From an uncultured archaeon (lineage in GTDB: Archaea > Altiarchaeota > Altiarchaeia > IMC4 > SCGC-AAA252-I15): DNA of 10,140 nucleotides. Positions 646 through 10,140 of the stretch are shown piece by piece. The position numbers were made by a program, and so were the translations under genes. The notes beneath the pieces were generated by a model. It made no database searches, had not been told where the DNA came from, and saw only the letters and a list, made by a program, of their open reading frames with translations. Position 1 is the stretch's first letter. Every line of letters begins with the position of its first letter. Location: positions 1-10,140 of the forward strand of contig CABMCB010000096.1 of the NCBI GenBank assembly GCA_902384455.1, in the 5' to 3' direction.

Positions 646-2235
646 ATGAACTACGTAGTGGTTACCGGAGGAGTTTTAAGCGGCCTAGGGAAGGGAGTAA
701 CCGTCGCAAGCATCGGCCGCATACTCAAAGACCGCGGATACAACGTAGCCCCAATAAAAATCGACGGATACGTCAACGTAGACCCCGGCACAATGAACCC
801 CTACGAACACGGAGAAGTCTACGTACTCGAAGACGGAAGCGAAACAGACCTAGACCTCGGCCACTACGAACGATTCCTCAACGTAGACCTAACAGGCGAA
901 AGCAGCATCACAACCGGACTAGTATACCAAACCGTCATCGACAAAGAACGAAGAGGAGACTACCTCGGAAAAACAGTCCAAGTAATACCCCACATAACAG
1001 ACGAAATCAAAAAACGAATCAAACGCCTCAAAGACGGAATAGACGTAGTACTCATAGAAGTCGGCGGCACAGTCGGAGACATGGAAAACCGCGTATTCAT
1101 AGAAGCCCTCCGACAACTAGCCCGAGAAAAAGACAACAAAGTAGTATTCGTACACCTATCCTACGTCCCAGTCATACTATCCGGAGAACAAAAAACAAAA
1201 CCAACACAACACAGCGTAAAAGAACTACTCTCACTCGGAATACAACCCGACATCATAATCGGCCGAAGCGAAAAAGAACTCGCAAAAGACGCCAAACGAA
1301 AAATAGCACTCTTCTGCGGAGTAGCCGAAAACGACGTATTTTCCAACCCAGACATAGACGACATATACTGCCTGCCACTCGTCTTCAACAAACAAAACGT
1401 AGGCGACAACATAATAGAAAAACTCTGCCTCAAAACAACACCAAAAAGCTCCTCATGGGAAAAACTAATAGAAAAAATACGCGAACCCAAAGAAGAAGTC
1501 AACATCGCAGTCATAGGAAAATACACCGGCCTAATCGACGCATACCTCTCAATCAAAGAAGCATTCAAACACGCCGCAGTCGCCAACAACTGCAAAGTCA
1601 AACTCACCTGGATAGAAGCCGAAGAAATAAACGGCAACGACATATCAGACTTCGACGGCGTACTAGTACCCGGAGGATTCGGAAGCCGCGGAGTAGAAGG
1701 AAAAATAAACGCAATACAAAAAGCACGCGAAAACGAAATACCCTTCCTAGGAATATGCTTCGGAATGCAACTAGCAGTAGTAGAATACGCCAGAAACATA
1801 CTCGGCCTCAAAAAAGCCGCCTCCACCGAAGAAACGCCCGACACCCCCGACCCCGTAGTAGACTTCATCCCGGAGCAAAAAACAATCTCAAAGAAAGGCG
1901 CCACAATGAGACTCGGCTCCCAAAAATGCCTCCTCAAAAAAGGAAGCATGGCAGCCAAACTATACGGAGCTGAAGAAGTCAACGAACGCCACCGCCACCG
2001 CTACGAAATCAACCCCACATACATACAACGCCTAGAAGAAGCAGGACTAGTCTTCTCAGGAAAACACTCTGAAAAAGACCTGATGGAAATAGTCGAAATA
2101 ACCAACCACCCCTACTTCATGGGATGCCAATTCCACCCCGAATTCAAAAGCAGACTAGAAAAACCAGCACCACTATTCGTAGGCCTTGTGGCAGCCGCAT
2201 TAAAGAGAAAGAAAAACAAGACGACTAAGAAGTAG
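646..2235 (+). CDS. pyrG: CTP synthase (glutamine-hydrolysing), 529 aa
   Basis: Canonical N-terminus MNYVVVTGGVLSGLGKG, plus DPGTMNPYEHGEVYV, DLDLGHYERF, GKTVQVIPHITDEIK, EVGGTVGD and KTKPTQHSVKEL. The GATase part has PGGFG, GICFG (catalytic Cys), ERHRHRYE and QFHPE. SD GGTGG lies just upstream. The ORF-track start at 16 is a spurious extension. Confidence 0.98.
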   Translation: MNYVVVTGGVLSGLGKGVTVASIGRILKDRGYNVAPIKIDGYVNVDPGTMNPYEHGEVYVLEDGSETDLDLGHYERFLNVDLTGESSITTGLVYQTVIDKERRGDYLGKTVQVIPHITDEIKKRIKRLKDGIDVVLIEVGGTVGDMENRVFIEALRQLAREKDNKVVFVHLSYVPVILSGEQKTKPTQHSVKELLSLGIQPDIIIGRSEKELAKDAKRKIALFCGVAENDVFSNPDIDDIYCLPLVFNKQNVGDNIIEKLCLKTTPKSSSWEKLIEKIREPKEEVNIAVIGKYTGLIDAYLSIKEAFKHAAVANNCKVKLTWIEAEEINGNDISDFDGVLVPGGFGSRGVEGKINAIQKARENEIPFLGICFGMQLAVVEYARNILGLKKAASTEETPDTPDPVVDFIPEQKTISKKGATMRLGSQKCLLKKGSMAAKLYGAEEVNERHRHRYEINPTYIQRLEEAGLVFSGKHSEKDLMEIVEITNHPYFMGCQFHPEFKSRLEKPAPLFVGLVAAALKRKKNKTTKK

Positions 2236-2728
2236 CTTCCTTCTGCTTCCGACCCCTCTTAGTCCTCTCGCTTTTAACGTGGTCAAGAAGACTGCGCGGA
2301 ATAGTATGCTCAAACTTAACGACCTCATGAACCGGGTAAACCGTCATGTGGTGGCCGTCAAGCTTCTTAAGGAACTCCTCGAAACCGACGTTCTCCTCGG
2401 CGTTGGGGACGACTACTTTAACGATTATCTTACCGTCAAATGTGCGGAAGACTTTCTGGACCTCCTCATGCTGAGCAATCTCTTCAGCGATTTTCTTGCT
2501 TTCGGAAGGATGAGCGTCAATCATTATGATGCCAAGTTTTAGGCCTAGGTCGTGCGGGTTTATTTTGGCTGTAAATTGGTCTATTACTCCTCTTTCTACG
2601 AGGCGGTTTACTCGCGTAAATACTGTTGTGTGCGGTACACCCAGTTTCTGTCCGAGTTCCCTAAGGCTCATGCGAGCGTCAGATTGGAGGTTTTCTAGAA
2701 TCTGAGTGTCAAGGTCGTCTATTTTCAT
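2225..2728 (-). CDS. Lrp/AsnC-family transcriptional regulator, 167 aa
   Basis: N-terminal HTH IDDLDTQILENLQSDARMSLRELGQKLGVPHTTVFTRVNRLVERGVI, linker FTAKINPHDLG, and a RAM-like C-domain with a basic tail. Overlaps the pyrG 3' end convergently by 11 nt. Confidence 0.95.
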   Translation of the reverse strand: MKIDDLDTQILENLQSDARMSLRELGQKLGVPHTTVFTRVNRLVERGVIDQFTAKINPHDLGLKLGIIMIDAHPSESKKIAEEIAQHEEVQKVFRTFDGKIIVKVVVPNAEENVGFEEFLKKLDGHHMTVYPVHEVVKFEHTIPRSLLDHVKSERTKRGRKQKEATS

Positions 2729-2990
2729 AACGATGCTTTCTTGTATGGGTTTCTAATACAATTGTATAGTGTATTACCGACTTAGTATTTAAATATTATA
2801 CTCAAACACTGTTTTTCTTTAAATACTGTTTTAACACATATTGTACATATAATAGCATGATTATTAAATATTGTTCGATTAAAATGAATAGAAACGTCAC
2901 GGTGGTAAAACTGCCTGCACAACATGGGTCAAGGCAATAAATTGAATACTGTATAGTATATAAGCGTAAATGCCCCATACTATTCTCAAT
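2729..2990. promoter_or_regulatory. AT-rich divergent promoter region between the Lrp gene and the surface-protein cluster
   Basis: TATA-like TATTTAAATA (2786-2795) and TATATAA (2957-2963), palindrome ATACAATTGTAT (2756-2767), and repeated AATACTG/AATATTG half-sites. Confidence 0.6.
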
Positions 2991-3008
2991 ATGTCCTCTA
3001 ACGTCTCT

Positions 3009-3884
3009 ATGAACAAAGGACCGACATTAATGTCAATATTAATCATATTAATGTTTTCCGCAATAACATCCGCAATGCCGACCGTCTACAACATAGACGG
3101 CAACGTCTACGACTCAAGCGGCAACCCCCTAACAGGCGCCGTAGTATCCGCTTGGATAAACGGCACATTAAGGGCAAACTCCACCGCAACTAACCTCAGC
3201 CCAGGATACGAAAGCTACTACAACCTAGACATACAAGGAGACACCCAAGAAGCCAACAACAAAGAAACAGTAACATTCAAAGTAAACGGACGACAAGCAG
3301 AAGAAACTATCATATTCAAAATCAACGGCAACGAAGACAACTACGCCATCCACGTAACAGGAATATCCCCCCAAGCAACATCAACAACTACACTGCAAAA
3401 TACAGCCACAACCAGCACCACCACGACAATCCACACGGAAAACGAAGCAACCACAACAACCAAGCTTACTCAAACAACAAAAACAACGCTCAAAAGCACC
3501 ACCACAACAATACTGCCACCTACAACCCAACCAGAACCACAAACCCCACTAGAGACTACGACAACGACAACAGCAATAGAAAATACTCCCTCAACGACAG
3601 AAGAAACCGCCACCACAACAAGCACACTTAAACCCGCACAACAACCCACAACTCAAATTAACCTATGCTCAGACGGAATCCAGAACCAGGGTGAAGAAGG
3701 AATCGACTGCGCAGGACCATGCCCGAACCCCTGCGGAAACAAAGAAACAACAAAAAGCGAATCTCCCTCAAACACCAACCTGATCATAGGCATATTGTTG
3801 ATAGCGGCAGTATTCTTGTTTGCCCTACTCCTGCTAGCGGTTATACTGCTTAAATTAAAGGCGCGAAAACCCCGGAAAAGATAA
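3009..3884 (+). CDS. Membrane-anchored cell-surface protein: signal peptide, beta-rich N-domain, Thr-rich stalk, Cys motif, C-terminal TM helix with basic tail
   Basis: Signal-like MNKGPTLMSILIILMFSAITSA, domain VYNIDGNVYDSSGNPLTGAVVSAWING...VTFKVNG, Thr/Pro/Glu stalk, CSDGIQNQGEEGIDCAGPCPNPC, hydrophobic LIIGILLIAAVFLFALLLLAVILL, then KLKARKPRKR. The start is uncertain (2970, 2991 or 3009); the TATA at 2957 argues against 2970. Confidence 0.88.
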   Translation: MNKGPTLMSILIILMFSAITSAMPTVYNIDGNVYDSSGNPLTGAVVSAWINGTLRANSTATNLSPGYESYYNLDIQGDTQEANNKETVTFKVNGRQAEETIIFKINGNEDNYAIHVTGISPQATSTTTLQNTATTSTTTTIHTENEATTTTKLTQTTKTTLKSTTTTILPPTTQPEPQTPLETTTTTTAIENTPSTTEETATTTSTLKPAQQPTTQINLCSDGIQNQGEEGIDCAGPCPNPCGNKETTKSESPSNTNLIIGILLIAAVFLFALLLLAVILLKLKARKPRKR

Positions 3885-3939
3885 TGATTCAAGAATTATT
3901 TAACAAACCAAAATGACTCAGAGCCAAAAACTTATGGAA

Positions 3940-3955
3940 CAGTATTTAAATACTG
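3940..3955. promoter_or_regulatory. Perfect 16-bp palindrome CAGTATTTAAATACTG, candidate operator
   Basis: Self-complementary by inspection. It lies 18 nt upstream of TATA-like TTTATAT (3974-3980) ahead of the 4001 ATG. Confidence 0.55.
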
Positions 3956-4000
3956 GATGCTGTAATAATACACTTTATATCCAATGTGGGGGTCTCTTAA

Positions 4001-6457
4001 ATGTTTGTCCGTAATACAGAAAGGAAAGGATACCGACTGAACCAGAAAACTTGCATCATTCTTCTGATGCTTATTCTGACGGCAACTGCCGTCAACGCCG
4101 CCGCACAAACTGCGCCGCCAAACCCAAGCGCCGACACGCAATGGACGGACCCTATGATAAACGGCGCATATGACCCAGCATCAATCTCAACAGACGAGGT
4201 AATAAAAACAGACGCCCCCTCAGACGCCGCCGCATCCGACACCCCCATAGAAAACTTCAAAACCACAGACCAGCAAGTAGACCCCCAATGCTGTAACTGC
4301 TACTACCCAGACCTAACCGTAACAGACATATGGTGGAGCCCCACATCACCCGTCAACGGAAACAGCGTAACAATAACCGCCCGAATATCAAACATACAAG
4401 CAGCAGCCAACGCATACACCGGAACATGGGGAGCAGCCCTCTTCGTCGACGGCACACTCAAAAGCACCACCCTAAATCAACCCACACTAGGACCAGGATA
4501 CTACCGGGACATAACATTCCCAGCACTAACATTCTACACCGGCTCACACACAATACGAGTGGTATCAGACTACTACAACCAAGTCAGTGAATCAGACGAA
4601 AGCAACAACGAAAGAACCGAAACAATGTCGGTAGGAAGCGGACAACAACAACTAATGGTCCAAACAATAATATACAAAATAGACAACACCACCCAAAACA
4701 CATTCGACCCCAAACCAACAATAACCCTCATATCCGGCAGCGGACCAACCAACCACCAAACAGGATACACAAACAACGGCGCAGGCCTATACTGGTGGTA
4801 CGACAGCGGATACTACAACCTAAATTCTCAAGTCCGAATAACCGCTAAAGAACGCTTCACAACCAGCGGAAAAATATACAAACTATTCTACTACATGATA
4901 GACGGCGTCAGAACAGACATACCCGACGCAACAACAGACACGTCACTAACAATAACAATAAACCAATACCGAAGCATATGGTTCGTATACGGAGAACTCA
5001 TATATCCAACAATCACCAACATAAGATTCTCCACAATCACAACAAGCGGACCCAACTACTGCTACGCAGACATATACTCCCGCAGAGGCATACCAACAGT
5101 AAACGAGGTAATCAAAGACCCCTCCAGCACAACAATAGCCTCAGGAGCAGCCCTATACAGCGGAACAGCCACAAACGGAGTCTACAGAAGCTCATCCTTC
5201 GCGGCAGCCCAATGCGGAACATACACATGCCAAGTAACGGCCACCGCATACGGCCTAACAACAACTCAAACAGGCAGCACGTCAGTAAACTCCTGCAGTA
5301 AGCCGGATCTTACTGTCACAGACATTTATTGGGTGCCATCAAGTCCTGTAGCCGGCAGTTCGGTCACAATCTACTTTAAAGTAAAGAACATTGGAAACGC
5401 CGTAGCATGGAGAAACGACAATCAAGGCTCAGGCTTCCTACACAACTTCTACCTGAACGGGGCAATAACCAGCTCTCCCTGGCAGGGAACTGCCATGAAC
5501 CCAGGAGATGAAGTGGCATACACAGCCCACACGTTTACTCCGGCGTCTGCCGCAACATACACGCTAATGGTCGTTGCTGACGCAACACAACGCATTGACG
5601 AATCCGACGAAAGCAACAACGCCCGAACCGAGAGTATGACCGTTGGAACTCCTGGTGCACCCGACCTAATAGTCGAAGACATATGGTGGAACCCGGCGTC
5701 ACCTGTTGTAGGAAATTGGGTTCAAATATCTGCTCGAGTCAGAAACCAAGGTACTGCAGCTTCCGGTGTATGGAGCGTAGCTAACTATATCAATGGTAAC
5801 TTAGATGTCGCAGGCAACAACTACCAGAGTCTTGCCGCAGGCGCCTATCAAGACGTAAGCTTCGGCTCACGTCAATACAACACAGGCGGAACTTACAACG
5901 TCCATGTTATTGCTGATTACCTAAACCAAGTTGTAGAATCCAATGAAAACAACAACGACCGTACCGAGTATATGATTGTAGGCAGCCCTCCAAGCGGTTT
6001 GACAATATCCATCAACAGCGGTGCAACTTACGCGACTTCACCATCAGTCACCTTATCGCTTTACGCTTACGGCGCAACAGAATGCCACTATAACAACGAC
6101 GGGGGCGTCTGGAGCGCATGGGAACCTTACACAACAACTAAAGCGTGGACATTAAACAGCGGAGACGGCACACACACAGTAGGATACATCTGCAGAAACT
6201 CGGCAGGAGAAACCTCAGCAGTCTACGACTCAATAATACTAGACACAGGGGCGCCATACGGTCTGACCATCCTGATTAACGGCGGAGCAGCATACACAAC
6301 CTCGACTTCAGCCACCTTAACGTTGAATGCTTTCGGAGCCAGCGAGTGCCGTTACAACAACGAAGGCGGCGCATGGAGCGCTTGGAGTGCGTACACCACA
6401 AGTAAGGCTTGGACTCTAACCGCAGGCGACGGAACCAAAACCGTCGGCTACCATTGA
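4001..6457 (+). CDS. Giant secreted surface protein, N-terminal part (signal peptide, 3 CARDB domains, Ig-like repeats); ends at an in-frame TGA in mid-domain
   Basis: Signal-like KTCIILLMLILTATAVNAAA, three PDL-x-V-x-DI-x-W...E-S-x-E-x-NN CARDB signatures, and IN-x-GA-x-Y repeats. Its stop falls on a conserved Cys position. Confidence 0.85.
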   Translation: MFVRNTERKGYRLNQKTCIILLMLILTATAVNAAAQTAPPNPSADTQWTDPMINGAYDPASISTDEVIKTDAPSDAAASDTPIENFKTTDQQVDPQCCNCYYPDLTVTDIWWSPTSPVNGNSVTITARISNIQAAANAYTGTWGAALFVDGTLKSTTLNQPTLGPGYYRDITFPALTFYTGSHTIRVVSDYYNQVSESDESNNERTETMSVGSGQQQLMVQTIIYKIDNTTQNTFDPKPTITLISGSGPTNHQTGYTNNGAGLYWWYDSGYYNLNSQVRITAKERFTTSGKIYKLFYYMIDGVRTDIPDATTDTSLTITINQYRSIWFVYGELIYPTITNIRFSTITTSGPNYCYADIYSRRGIPTVNEVIKDPSSTTIASGAALYSGTATNGVYRSSSFAAAQCGTYTCQVTATAYGLTTTQTGSTSVNSCSKPDLTVTDIYWVPSSPVAGSSVTIYFKVKNIGNAVAWRNDNQGSGFLHNFYLNGAITSSPWQGTAMNPGDEVAYTAHTFTPASAATYTLMVVADATQRIDESDESNNARTESMTVGTPGAPDLIVEDIWWNPASPVVGNWVQISARVRNQGTAASGVWSVANYINGNLDVAGNNYQSLAAGAYQDVSFGSRQYNTGGTYNVHVIADYLNQVVESNENNNDRTEYMIVGSPPSGLTISINSGATYATSPSVTLSLYAYGATECHYNNDGGVWSAWEPYTTTKAWTLNSGDGTHTVGYICRNSAGETSAVYDSIILDTGAPYGLTILINGGAAYTTSTSATLTLNAFGASECRYNNEGGAWSAWSAYTTSKAWTLTAGDGTKTVGYH
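4307..5980 (+). repeat. Three CARDB-type Ig-like domains (4307-4633, 5303-5644, 5660-5980)
   Basis: Starts are PDLTVTDIWWSP / PDLTVTDIYWVP / PDLIVEDIWWNP. Ends are SESDESNNERT / DESDESNNART / VESNENNNDRT. Confidence 0.85.
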
Positions 6458-6781
6458 AAAGACGGAGCAGGAAACTTGGCCATACCAGCGTACGACACGA
6501 TAATCCTCGATACTCAAGCCCCAACTGGTCAGTCTATTCTAATTAATGGAGGAGCTACATACACGACGTCAACGTCTGTTACTTTGACTCTTTCCGCGAC
6601 AGGCGCAACTGAATGCCGGTACAACAACAACGGAGGCACTTGGACAGCTTATTCTGCTTACGTCACAAGTAAAGCGTGGACGCTGACAAGCGGAGACGGA
6701 ACCAAGACGGTCGGCTACCAGTGTAAGGATGCTGCTGGGAACGAGGCTTCCCCCGTATACGACAGCATAATACTACAAACC
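5990..6781 (+). repeat. Three tandem 88-89 aa Ig-like repeats (starts 5990, 6254, 6521)
   Basis: Consensus I-x-IN-x-GA-x-Y..GA-x-EC-x-YNN-x-GG-x-W-x-A..KAWTL-x-x-GDGT-x-TVGY-x-C..YD-x-IIL, with periods of 264 and 267 nt. Confidence 0.92.
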
Positions 6782-9700
6782 CCAACAACCACAACTACCA
6801 CAACGACTACCACTACAACTATAACTTCCACCACATCAACTATCCCGCTTCCGGGCGGACAATGCCTAATAGCATCAGTCCCTGCAGTCGGCACCTCAGG
6901 AACAGCCCGCGTAGGCTGCCCCACAGGATACGTCATAATGGGCGGCGGATGGAAAGATTACTGGGGCACAGGAGCCGGCGACGGAAACAACGACATATCA
7001 CGACCAGACGGCGACGGATGGCTCTGCCAGAAAGGCTCAGATCCTCGAACAACATGCTACGCAGTCTGCTGCAGCAGCAGCTACTATGACACCACAGTCA
7101 TTACTCAAACAGGTACGATGAGCACAGGCATAACTGCCACATGCCCGACAGGCTACACCGTAGTCGGCGGAGGATACAACGACATAGTAGCAGGGAAAGA
7201 CGAAGACGCAATCAAACCCTCCGGAAACGGATGGTACTGCTACGACGACCAGTCAACAACAGCCGGCTCAACATGCTACGCAGTATGCGGACGCCCAGCA
7301 CAAACCAACAAACAACTAAGCTGCGTAAACGTAATGCAAGCAGGAATACAGTGGCCAAACGGCATAACAGCCTCCTGCCCAACAGGATATGTAGTAACCG
7401 GCGGCGGATTCACTGACTACTCCACCGGAAACGACGACCAAGACTCAAGCAACCCAGTAAACAACGGATGGTTCTGCCAAGAAGACTTTGATGATTCCGT
7501 CCAAACATCAGGCGAATGCCACGCAAGATGCTGCAAACTAGATACGATAACAACCACCACAACCACCACAACCACCACAACCACCACAACCACCACAACC
7601 ACCACAACTACAACCACGATAACAACTACGACCTCCACTCTCCCTCTCCCAGGAGGACAATGCCTAATCGCCTCCGTTAAAAGCACAGGCACAACAGGGA
7701 CAGCCCGCGTAGGCTGCCCCACAGGATACGCTATAATGGGCGGCGGATGGGGAGGCTACAGCGGCGCAGCTAACGGCGACGGAAACAACGACATATCACG
7801 GCCAGACGGCAACGGATGGCTCTGCGAAAAAGATTCCACAGGAACTGCTACATGCTACGCAGTCTGCTGCGACTCCGACTACTACAACACTACTGTAATA
7901 TCGACCTCAGGTAAGATGAGCACTGGAATACTCGCATCCTGCCCCTCAGGATACACAATCGTAGGCGGAGGATACACAGATATAATACCCGGCTACGATG
8001 AAGACGTGATTCAACCGTCAGGAAACGGATGGTACTGTTACGACGACCAGTCAACAACAGCCGGCTCAACATGCTACGCAGTCTGCGCCAAACCCATCCA
8101 AAGCAACCAACAAATAAGCTGCGTCAACATAGTACAACCCGGAATACAATACCCGACCGCAGTAACAGCTTATTGCCCATCCGGTTACGTAATCACCGGC
8201 GGCGGTTTCGTTGACAACTCCGGCGGAAACGACGACCAAGACTCAAGCAACCCAGTAAACAACGGATGGACCTGCTGGGAAGACTACCAAGACTCCCCCG
8301 TTGTCTCAGGAGAATGCTACGCAAGATGCTGCAAACTAAGCACGCCTACCACAACAACGACTACGACCACTACGACTACCACAACAACTACGACAACCAC
8401 TACAACGACCACATCCACAACGTCAACCACCATCTATATGTGCAGCGGCGACAACGTGCGAATGAAGATAATCTACGATAGAATCTGGTACAACGGAACA
8501 GGCTACGTAACCCCCAACACTTACGTCGGAAACGGAGCGACTGCATACGCTAACAACACGTGGATTCCACTCGTAACTTCCGGCGTCGTAGTCATAGATC
8601 CGACCGTTAACACAAACGTCCCGGGAATGTCCGTCCAAAGACTATTCGACCAAGCGTCATCCAAAGGGAAAGTCATAGTAACACAATACGGATTCCGAGG
8701 AAGTTGGGACTGGGAACACGTCCTTGGTAGACTACAGCTACAAAACGGGATAATAACACAGGTAGTAAACGGTCCTTCAAACAACACTTGGGGCTTCGGA
8801 CCTTATGAAAACCAAGGGGACGGTATTGCCTTGATTAACCCCGGTTCAGACGAGTTCTGGTGGACCCCTAACATAGCCAACATGACGTTCCACACGACAG
8901 TAAACACACACGCAGACACATTCATACTATACTACGACTGCGCACCAACAACCACAACTACAACTACCACAACAACGACTACGACCACAACCACCACAAC
9001 CACTACCACAACAACCACGACGACCATACCACTAACAGCCCCAATCCCAACAGCCATATGGAATACAGACGGCAGCGTAACCGTAATCTGGCCACCAGTC
9101 ACAGGAGCCACATCTTACGTAATCTACGCCACAAACACATGCGGCGGAAGCTACTCGGCAGTAGCATCAGTCACCACGCCAAACTGGACAGATACCACAG
9201 CATACCTATTCAATGAACGCTACTACAAAGTGGCAGCAGCCAGAGGCGCAGAAAACGTAATGTCCACATACGCAGTAGGCAAAGTAGACGTCGCCTTAAC
9301 CGAAGGCTGGAACACAGTCTCCTCACCCGTAATACCAACCAACACAGGAATCAAACCATACACAACCTCAGTACTAGCCTCCTTACACAACCCCGCAAAC
9401 ACAGACTTCGGACCCGGATTCACAGGAAGCTACGACTTCGTAATCGGACCAGTAACAGACGGCTCCACAACACTCGGCTCATTCAACCCATACGTACCAT
9501 CATGGATAGGACAAAACCTACTGAGAATAACCGAAAAAGTCAGCTTCCAAATACTCATGAACCAAGCTGACGTACTAACCTTCGTCGGAAAAGTACCCGC
9601 AACAACAAACATAACCCTACCAAACGCAGGATGGTTCTGGATCGGATACCCATCATGCAGAACACAAACAATCAAACCCTACTCCGCCTCAGTACTACAC

Positions 9701-9928
9701 TCACTACACGACGGAACAGCAACAGACTTCGGACCAGCCTACGACGGAAACTACGACTTCCTAATCGGACCCACAACAGCCGCACAAAAAGGATACCTAG
9801 GAACATTCGACCCATTCAAACCATCATTCCTACCACAAAACCTAGAAAACATGCAACAAGGAAACGGCTACATAATCTACATGAACCACGCAGACACATT
9901 CGTAGTAAACTACGCCGGAGGCCCATAA
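6476..9928 (+). CDS. Giant secreted surface protein, C-terminal part (Ig-like repeat, 2x3 Cys-rich modules, poly-Thr linkers, unknown domain, FN3-like domain, two L-x-x-GW repeats); same frame as the upstream ORF
   Basis: In frame with 4001-6457. It begins mid-repeat at a TTG with no signal peptide, and the intervening codons KDGAGN continue the repeat consensus. Confidence 0.85.
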   Translation: MAIPAYDTIILDTQAPTGQSILINGGATYTTSTSVTLTLSATGATECRYNNNGGTWTAYSAYVTSKAWTLTSGDGTKTVGYQCKDAAGNEASPVYDSIILQTPTTTTTTTTTTTTITSTTSTIPLPGGQCLIASVPAVGTSGTARVGCPTGYVIMGGGWKDYWGTGAGDGNNDISRPDGDGWLCQKGSDPRTTCYAVCCSSSYYDTTVITQTGTMSTGITATCPTGYTVVGGGYNDIVAGKDEDAIKPSGNGWYCYDDQSTTAGSTCYAVCGRPAQTNKQLSCVNVMQAGIQWPNGITASCPTGYVVTGGGFTDYSTGNDDQDSSNPVNNGWFCQEDFDDSVQTSGECHARCCKLDTITTTTTTTTTTTTTTTTTTTTTTTITTTTSTLPLPGGQCLIASVKSTGTTGTARVGCPTGYAIMGGGWGGYSGAANGDGNNDISRPDGNGWLCEKDSTGTATCYAVCCDSDYYNTTVISTSGKMSTGILASCPSGYTIVGGGYTDIIPGYDEDVIQPSGNGWYCYDDQSTTAGSTCYAVCAKPIQSNQQISCVNIVQPGIQYPTAVTAYCPSGYVITGGGFVDNSGGNDDQDSSNPVNNGWTCWEDYQDSPVVSGECYARCCKLSTPTTTTTTTTTTTTTTTTTTTTTTSTTSTTIYMCSGDNVRMKIIYDRIWYNGTGYVTPNTYVGNGATAYANNTWIPLVTSGVVVIDPTVNTNVPGMSVQRLFDQASSKGKVIVTQYGFRGSWDWEHVLGRLQLQNGIITQVVNGPSNNTWGFGPYENQGDGIALINPGSDEFWWTPNIANMTFHTTVNTHADTFILYYDCAPTTTTTTTTTTTTTTTTTTTTTTTTTTIPLTAPIPTAIWNTDGSVTVIWPPVTGATSYVIYATNTCGGSYSAVASVTTPNWTDTTAYLFNERYYKVAAARGAENVMSTYAVGKVDVALTEGWNTVSSPVIPTNTGIKPYTTSVLASLHNPANTDFGPGFTGSYDFVIGPVTDGSTTLGSFNPYVPSWIGQNLLRITEKVSFQILMNQADVLTFVGKVPATTNITLPNAGWFWIGYPSCRTQTIKPYSASVLHSLHDGTATDFGPAYDGNYDFLIGPTTAAQKGYLGTFDPFKPSFLPQNLENMQQGNGYIIYMNHADTFVVNYAGGP
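6851..8338 (+). repeat. Direct duplication of a 690-nt block (6851-7540 and 7649-8338), each encoding three Cys-rich CP-x-GY-x-x-x-GGG modules
   Basis: Offset is 798 nt. Both blocks run from PGGQCLIASV to ARCCKL and carry 16 Cys each. Confidence 0.95.
7550..7608 (+). repeat. Perfect tandem repeat (ACAACCACC)x6 plus a partial copy, encoding poly-Thr
   Basis: Six exact 9-nt units at 7550-7603, read directly. Confidence 0.95.
9296..9913 (+). repeat. Two C-terminal ~108-aa L-x-x-GW repeats
   Basis: LTEGWNTVSSP..IKPYTTSVLASLH..TDFGP..YDFVIGP..LGSFNP..QNL..MNQAD versus LPNAGWFWIGYP..IKPYSASVLHSLH..TDFGP..YDFLIGP..LGTFDP..QNL..MNHAD; period 324 nt. Confidence 0.85.
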
Positions 9929-9929
9929 A

Positions 9930-10140
9930 ATGAACGCAAAAAACAACAAGTTTAGGACAACAGCATTAATCACATTTGCCTTATTGCTGGCAAGTCAAGC
10001 CGCCTCCGCGGTCTCTACTGTTCATAATTTTGACGGTAATGTTTATGATAGTACTGGTAATCCTGTTGTTGGTGCTACTGTTTTGGCGTGGGTTAATGGG
10101 ACAGTGCGTGGGAGTTTTGTTACGCAAAATTTTGGTTCGG
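9930..10140 (+). CDS. Secreted protein, paralog of the 3009-3884 product, truncated by the window edge (MNAKNNKFRTTALITFALLLASQAASAVSTVHNFDGNVYDSTGNPVVGATVLAWVNGTVRGSFVTQNFGS...)
   Basis: ATG 1 nt after the upstream TAA, with GGAGG inside the upstream gene end. Signal peptide ends in ASA, and 22/31 aa are identical to the N-domain of the 3009 protein. Absent from the ORF track. Confidence 0.88.
   Translation, partial: MNAKNNKFRTTALITFALLLASQAASAVSTVHNFDGNVYDSTGNPVVGATVLAWVNGTVRGSFVTQNFGS

Follow-up and report, generated by a model that had tools for sequence, protein, structure and literature searches.

A single in-frame TGA at a conserved cysteine interrupts the gene for a large modular surface protein in an uncultured altiarchaeon and is probably a recent nonsense allele

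The stretch of DNA analyzed here (the window) is a complete contig of 10,140 bp (C96) from a metagenome-assembled genome (MAG) of an uncultured altiarchaeon. It carries a long gene for a predicted modular surface protein, broken by a single in-frame TGA, and this stop codon is the subject of our analysis. The MAG consists of 103 contigs with a total of 2.41 Mb and a G+C content of 50.5%. Its completeness is 91.88% and its contamination 0.9%. An archaeal small-subunit (SSU) rRNA is present in the same genome. The product of pyrG (CTP synthase), encoded in the window, is 59–71% identical to its relatives. Of the 17 organism-named matches, 16 are assigned to Candidatus Altiarchaeota, Altiarchaeia or Altiarchaeales; the remaining one is named ‘Methanobacteriota archaeon’. 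The coordinates of the genes and domains are collected in Table 1. A promoter and terminator scan of positions 2700–10140 gave nothing above shuffle expectation.

Table 1. Features of the 10,140-bp window, with the basis of the assignment or the stop codon where given.
Feature	Position	Strand	Basis or stop codon
pyrG	646-2235	+	stop TAG
Open reading frame	2225-2728	-	stop TAG
Small secreted, membrane-anchored protein	2970-3884	+	stop TAA
Upstream part of the interrupted gene, 818 codons: signal-peptide-like N-terminus, three CARDB, unassigned region, repeat 1, most of repeat 2	4001-6454	+	ORF list, translation, Pfam
Repeat 1, 88 aa, FN3/Ig-like; Cys codons TGC 6083 and TGC 6191	5990-6253	+
Repeat 2; first Cys codon TGC 6347, second Cys position = TGA	6254-6517	+
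In-frame TGA at the second conserved Cys of repeat 2	6455-6457	+	sequence, translation, 17-unit alignment
Downstream part of the interrupted gene, 1156 codons, no stop: remainder of repeat 2, repeat 3, poly-Thr linkers, two copies of a Cys-rich triple module, unassigned domain, C-terminal domain	6458-9925	+
Repeat 3; Cys codons TGC 6614 and TGT 6722	6521-6784	+
C-terminal module, ~295 aa: one FN3-like unit and a duplicated ~100-aa unit	9038-9925	+
True stop of the gene	9926-9928	+	TAA
Start of the next gene (ATG 9931): signal peptide and a domain like that of 2970-3884	9931-10140	+

The list of open reading frames (ORFs) confirms that the ORFs at 4001–6457 (818 aa) and 6476–9928 lie in the same frame, as an earlier note on this DNA had read them. 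Translated through the TGA, the two parts form one frame of 1975 sense codons with a single internal stop. The TGA lies 264 nt past the TGC at 6191 and 267 nt ahead of the TGT at 6722. The alignment shows that both of these are the equivalent Cys codons, in repeats 1 and 3, and the partner Cys codon of repeat 2 is kept. Repeat 2 has likewise kept each of its conserved residues 3′ of the stop (D, AGN, D, I, LDT). No stop occurs in the 1156 codons downstream, where the other two forward frames contain 81 and 22. This intact frame is far from chance. The first possible start past the TGA, a TTG at 6476, falls within repeat 2; the sequence that follows it is domain sequence and not a signal peptide. 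The four remaining stops read in the window are TAG or TAA (Table 1). On all of these points, from the spacing of the Cys codons to the lack of a further lesion, the reading in the earlier note was correct.

The region 4001–9928 is one gene, as that note had proposed, because a relative of the same family (G017:C121) joins the repeats and the C-terminal module in one uninterrupted frame. There, three Cys–Cys repeats run into a C-terminal module that is 61% identical to that of the window. This frame has a true TGA as its stop, and next to it comes a small protein resembling that encoded at 2970–3884. The repeats and the C-terminal module are likewise found in a single chain in the representative protein P0349. 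In the window, the downstream ORF begins in the middle of a domain and has no export signal. The alternative is a pair of separate genes, in which the 818-aa protein would be a natural product and a second protein would be made from TTG 6476 by termination–reinitiation. A GGAG/AGGA stretch does lie 4–12 nt upstream of this TTG, and NCBI lists the 818-aa product as a protein of its own (deposited in nr, where it forms a singleton cluster). However, the purine-rich stretch is simply made up of the codons for the conserved residues D-G-A-G-N, and the stop and the TTG both fall within one folded 88-aa domain. The product of the second gene would lack a signal peptide. By contrast, of the eight proteins that carry the C-terminal module in full length, four open with a signal-peptide-like N-terminus. 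Since the two parts are fused in the same-family relative, we find the two-gene explanation scarcely credible.

In the upstream part of the protein, CARDB (PF07705) was matched in three stretches with an E value of 3e-51 and 172.3 bits, against a gathering score of 22.7. In the Pfam copy used, no family scored above its cut-off on the repeats, the Cys-rich module, the domain at 8261–8899, the C-terminal domain or the region 4601–5350. The stretch at 6785–8920 contains pure Thr runs, the longest of about 27 residues. A Cys-rich unit of ~280 aa occurs there twice and is built from three similar parts. The only relatives found for this unit are in G001:C19 (48–61% identity, within a 3447-aa frame) and in the locus L036 (42% identity, on a 1.7-kb contig). 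The latter was the one locus obtained when the Cys-rich module was compared with metagenome contigs.

The position taken by the TGA is a conserved one. We aligned 17 repeat units, of which 3 come from the window and 14 from five related genomes. The TGA column holds 15 Cys, one Val and the TGA itself, and the partner column holds 16 Cys and one Val. The two Val residues belong to one and the same unit (G028, L017), as expected of a disulfide pair. The AlphaFold2 (AF2) model of repeat 3, calculated with the 17-unit alignment, is a beta-sandwich with a predicted local distance difference test score (pLDDT) of 96.8. Both Cys residues (32 and 68) are in beta-strands, and the two positions are probably in mutual contact. 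The closest folds in the PDB are FN3, PKD and the adhesin Ig modules of SiiE. The three repeats of the window are 59–67% identical in DNA. Repeats 2 and 3 differ at 14, 17 and 56 sites by codon position, a pattern that reveals past purifying selection on the repeat.

Beyond these genomes, the repeat is a very widespread tandem module. A search with residues 640–1140, restricted like that with residues 1–640 to proteins of 1086–3457 aa, gave 898 matches. None of them is a close relative: all match via the repeat module and are at most ~54% identical. The best 120 proteins contain 1503 units. In these, the two columns are hydrophobic, with Met in 1015 of the 1503 at one of them and mainly Phe (596), Tyr (377) and Val (174) at the other. 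The Cys–Cys pair is thus a speciality of the subfamily in this archaeal order, where a disulfide seems to have replaced a buried hydrophobic pair.

A UGA facing a conserved Cys is the classic signature of selenocysteine (Sec), and recoding of this UGA as Sec or Cys was one of the options in the earlier note. We examined how TGA is used in the genome. Among the 1033 ORFs of at least 300 codons, 324 (31%) are closed by TGA. The median open frame past the stop is 12 codons for TGA (n=310), 13 for TAG (n=205) and 18 for TAA (n=478). TGA is a common terminator, and past it the frames close as fast as past TAG; the genome therefore treats TGA as a stop. A genetic code in which TGA is reassigned is rejected on the same grounds.

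The machinery for Sec was below cut-off or absent in the genome. No tRNA-Sec (RF01852) scored above 47 bits. The best match, with 43 bits, is at C59:50761–50843, a locus that aragorn calls tRNA-Ser(TGA). Aragorn found 131 tRNAs in the genome, none with a stop-reading anticodon (tca, cta or tta). The best score for SelD (TIGR00476) was 32.7 bits against a cut-off of 125, and that for SelB (TIGR00475) was 164.6 bits against 242.25, with matches over the GTPase part only. For PSTK (TIGR03574), the sole KTI12-like match is a kinase–HAD fusion with 58.6 bits against 290.5. SepSecS (PF05889) gave no match, and no formate dehydrogenase alpha was found in the genome.

An Rfam scan of the window to an E value of 10 gave no selenocysteine insertion sequence (SECIS) and four unrelated sub-threshold matches; no dedicated search for archaeal SECIS patterns was made. 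According to PMC8211752, the archaeal SECIS normally lies in the 3′ untranslated region (3′UTR). In the window, the next gene begins 2 nt past the TAA, which leaves no 3′UTR. Shuffled versions fold better than the 66 nt that begin at the TGA (z +1.58). The sequence after the TAA (z −1.27) and the 5′UTR (z −0.65), where a SECIS is found only rarely, do not stand out from their shuffles. The earlier note, too, had found no convincing SECIS.

We also screened the genome for other TGA codons that face a Cys in a paralog. The screen covered 3014 TGA sites with at least 40 open codons on both sides and was filtered, as an unfiltered version (369 queries with matches) had been swamped by low-complexity and antisense matches. 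A paralog match spanning the TGA was found for 25 of the 3014 sites, and in 7 of these the TGA is aligned to Cys. Six of the seven are antisense to a longer ORF (181–1382 codons). The site in the window is the only one in a main coding frame. The 14 other largest pairs of same-frame ORFs in the genome are, by eye, ordinary neighbors with a Met of their own, so that the TGA site is singular in this genome.

Dedicated recoding, whether as Sec or as Cys with the help of a dedicated tRNA and factor, is therefore not supported. The modules of the relatives carry Cys (these are homologous modules and not orthologues), no second TGA/Cys pair of the paralog screen lies in a coding frame, no Sec gene scores above cut-off in a genome that is 8% incomplete, and TGA is a frequent true stop. 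Within these limits, recoding is refuted by the test that the earlier note had set for it. On the model, the site appears to be a structural Cys in an FN3-like spacer and not a redox center. Besides the signature itself, the tRNA-dependent SepRS/SepCysS pathway to Cys reported for Altiarchaeales (PMC5424206) is a point in favor of recoding. The same survey, from 2017, names these Altiarchaeales as SepRS users only and reports the archaeal Sec trait only from class I methanogens, Asgard and the AK8/W8A-19 group. We regard recoding as a very remote prospect.

Two further explanations leave the full-length protein in use. If the TGA is a sequencing or consensus error, the true codon is TGC (Cys) and the gene is intact. 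The TGA is one base away from the dominant Cys codon of the gene (TGC in 46 of 49 cases), the reading frame has no other lesion, the conserved residues of repeat 2 past the stop are kept, and the contig belongs to a metagenome assembly in many pieces. The likelihood of such an error is reduced by several points. Repeats of such low identity in DNA make a repeat mis-assembly unlikely, and we rejected it. The ORFs of at least 300 codons span 1.52 Mb of the genome, a normal content, which shows that poor base quality is not a general feature of the assembly. As a rule, wrong bases in an assembled consensus are less common than nonsense alleles that segregate in genes for surface proteins. Taken together, an error is unlikely, though it keeps a real share of the probability.

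In the other explanation, the UGA is read at a low level by a near-cognate tRNA (Cys-GCA or Trp-CCA), as leaky or programmed readthrough, and both the short 818-aa form and a minor full-length form are used. The genome has several copies each of tRNA-Cys(GCA) and tRNA-Trp(CCA), and the downstream frame is wholly intact, which a young nonsense allele accounts for equally well. In bacteria, there are contexts that terminate more strongly than a UGA with A as the next base. No stimulatory structure lies 3′ of the stop in the 66 nt described above, and none of the 14 units from other genomes (modules, not orthologues) has a stop at this column, nor does a stop fall within any match other than the window's own. 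Recoding events in Archaea, as covered in PMC8037382 and PMC8211752, have been demonstrated only for Sec, pyrrolysine (Pyl) and −1 frameshifting. We consider readthrough with two functional forms decidedly unlikely. A more specific version, in which the UGA is real and fixed and is read only rarely by tRNA-Cys or tRNA-Trp, would give mostly a free 818-aa CARDB fragment and little full-length protein docked through its C-terminus. This is improbable; if true, it would represent a surface protein with two isoforms tuned by a stop codon and the first archaeal readthrough without Sec or Pyl. Phase variation by a simple-sequence tract was rejected, as there is no tract at the site.

We favor a private and recent nonsense allele, TGC>TGA, which we judge to be probable, though well short of certain. 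The ranking in the earlier note, in which a nonsense mutation and an error were at least as likely as recoding and readthrough, is thus kept. The change would be one C>A transversion, in the codon for the second Cys of the structural pair in repeat 2. The ancestral codon was most likely TGC, because this codon serves for nearly all Cys residues of the gene. The domain broken by the stop is conserved and folded, and homologs carry it without interruption. The lesion appears to be young, because the 1156 codons downstream are intact and nothing else in the gene is broken. We infer that the base is real in the population and that the ribosome would stop at 6455 as at any TGA in the genome. The product would be an exported fragment of 818 aa with the signal peptide, three CARDB and 1.8 repeats, and it would lack the Thr-rich linkers, the Cys-rich modules and the conserved C-terminal module. 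For the cell, the long form would be switched off, or the protein would be unhooked.

Several points weigh against a nonsense allele. The base call rests on the assembly consensus, which does not tell a real allele from a consensus error. To look for a second copy of the site, we used an exact 26-mer with the TG of the TGA as its last two letters; it had 0 matches in the metagenome or genome contig collections, from which records of the same or near genomes may be omitted. The collections hold no true orthologue: the N-terminal 640 aa gave 157 matches through CARDB, the best of them 31% identical, and the C-terminal 335 aa found no related locus among the genome contigs. The statement that relatives have Cys at this position is therefore one about homologous modules and not about the same gene. 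Readthrough or an error would leave the downstream frame just as intact. The absence of Sec genes, in a genome that is 91.9% complete, is strong but not absolute. Efficient termination at UGA-A in this lineage is our assumption.

What the truncation would mean for the cell depends on the C-terminal module. It is 55–61% identical to modules in G017:C121, G019:C42 and G017:C118, and a paralog is present in the same genome (C94, in a 1382-aa frame). Among the best 150 representatives, 8 match the module over its whole length, and in 7 of these 8 it lies at the extreme C-terminus of the protein. The other matches among these representatives cover only the first ~80 residues, which are FN3-like. 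The AF2 model of the module, built with 4 sequences, has a mean pLDDT of 40.6. It is confident for residues 1–77 only; residues 78–296, which contain the internal ~100-aa duplication, are below 50. The earlier note had suggested that an adhesive head is present only in the long form. This is not supported, as the module is restricted to the lineage and stands at the very end of secreted proteins that are otherwise differently built. This distribution would suit a docking or anchoring module common to these proteins more than a head. We suspect that the large protein is docked to the cell through this module. In that case, the nonsense allele would release or abolish the structure, and the loss would not be that of an adhesive head.

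A gene for a small protein follows that for a large protein ending in the module at four loci: G017:C121 (L025), G017:C118 (L013), G019:C42 (L026) and the window. The small protein consists of a signal peptide, an N-terminal domain of ~95 aa and a Thr-rich stalk, with a C-terminal membrane helix in the protein encoded at 2970–3884. The large protein and the small membrane protein may form a docking pair.

The pyrG gene of the window is deposited in the public collection as a protein of 739 aa (P0245; positions 16–2235), whereas its homologs have 521–544 aa. The match to these begins at the Met at 646, and the additional ~210 residues ahead of it are of low complexity and overlap a 169-aa minus-strand ORF at 1–507 that leaves the contig end. 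The deposited start was probably set too far upstream.

The same genome contains three dense tRNA arrays, at G000:C59:49310–58891 (34 tRNAs), G000:C38:18856–28629 (30) and G000:C4:2065–~8700 (about 23). Each is a near-complete set on one strand, and only 42 of the 131 tRNAs called by aragorn lie outside these three contigs. The arrays may belong to a mobile element or a virus with its own tRNA set. We considered them as a source of suppressor tRNAs and rejected this, as they contain no stop-reading anticodon. A P-loop kinase fused to a HAD phosphatase, similar to polynucleotide kinase-phosphatase, is encoded at C4:28596–29477.

By analogy, the nearest known cases are genes for surface proteins with a natural premature stop, inlA among them. 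In the premature stop codon (PMSC) alleles of inlA described for Listeria monocytogenes (PMC12427964, PMC5131979), a single nonsense codon likewise interrupts the gene for a large secreted surface protein of modular build. The cell still makes and exports the N-terminal part but loses the C-terminal one; the rest of the gene is intact, and only certain strains carry the allele. Here, the organism is an uncultivated altiarchaeon and not a bacterium, and that the lost C-terminal module serves as an anchor is our proposal. The gene of the window would thus be a fresh instance in a little-studied lineage. Archaeal selenoprotein genes, as described in PMC8211752 (with tRNA-Sec, SelD, PSTK, SepSecS, aSelB and a SECIS in the 3′UTR), share with it the in-frame UGA facing a Cys in homologs. 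However, the gene of the window fails every other feature tested, the Cys is a structural one, and the lineage is not among the published Sec users. Stop-codon reassignment, as in NCBI tables 4 and 25 (TGA read as Trp or Gly), also places TGA within coding frames, in contrast to the role of TGA as a frequent ORF end in this genome. The three CARDB, the FN3/PKD/Ig-like fold and the widespread repeat are shared with the CARDB/FN3-like modular surface proteins of archaea and bacteria. The Cys–Cys pair sets the protein apart from the wide repeat family with its hydrophobic columns.

For biology at large, the observation carries little weight: it shows either a fast-evolving surface-protein gene just after a nonsense hit or one miscalled base. 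Only if the stop is read through would it bear on readthrough without Sec or Pyl in Archaea. The two deposited ORFs should be annotated as a single interrupted gene. The locus is also a clean negative control for screens that equate a UGA aligned to Cys with a selenoprotein in lineages without Sec machinery. It further points to a lineage-restricted C-terminal module and a conserved small membrane neighbor, which may hold the giant surface proteins of Altiarchaea on the cell.

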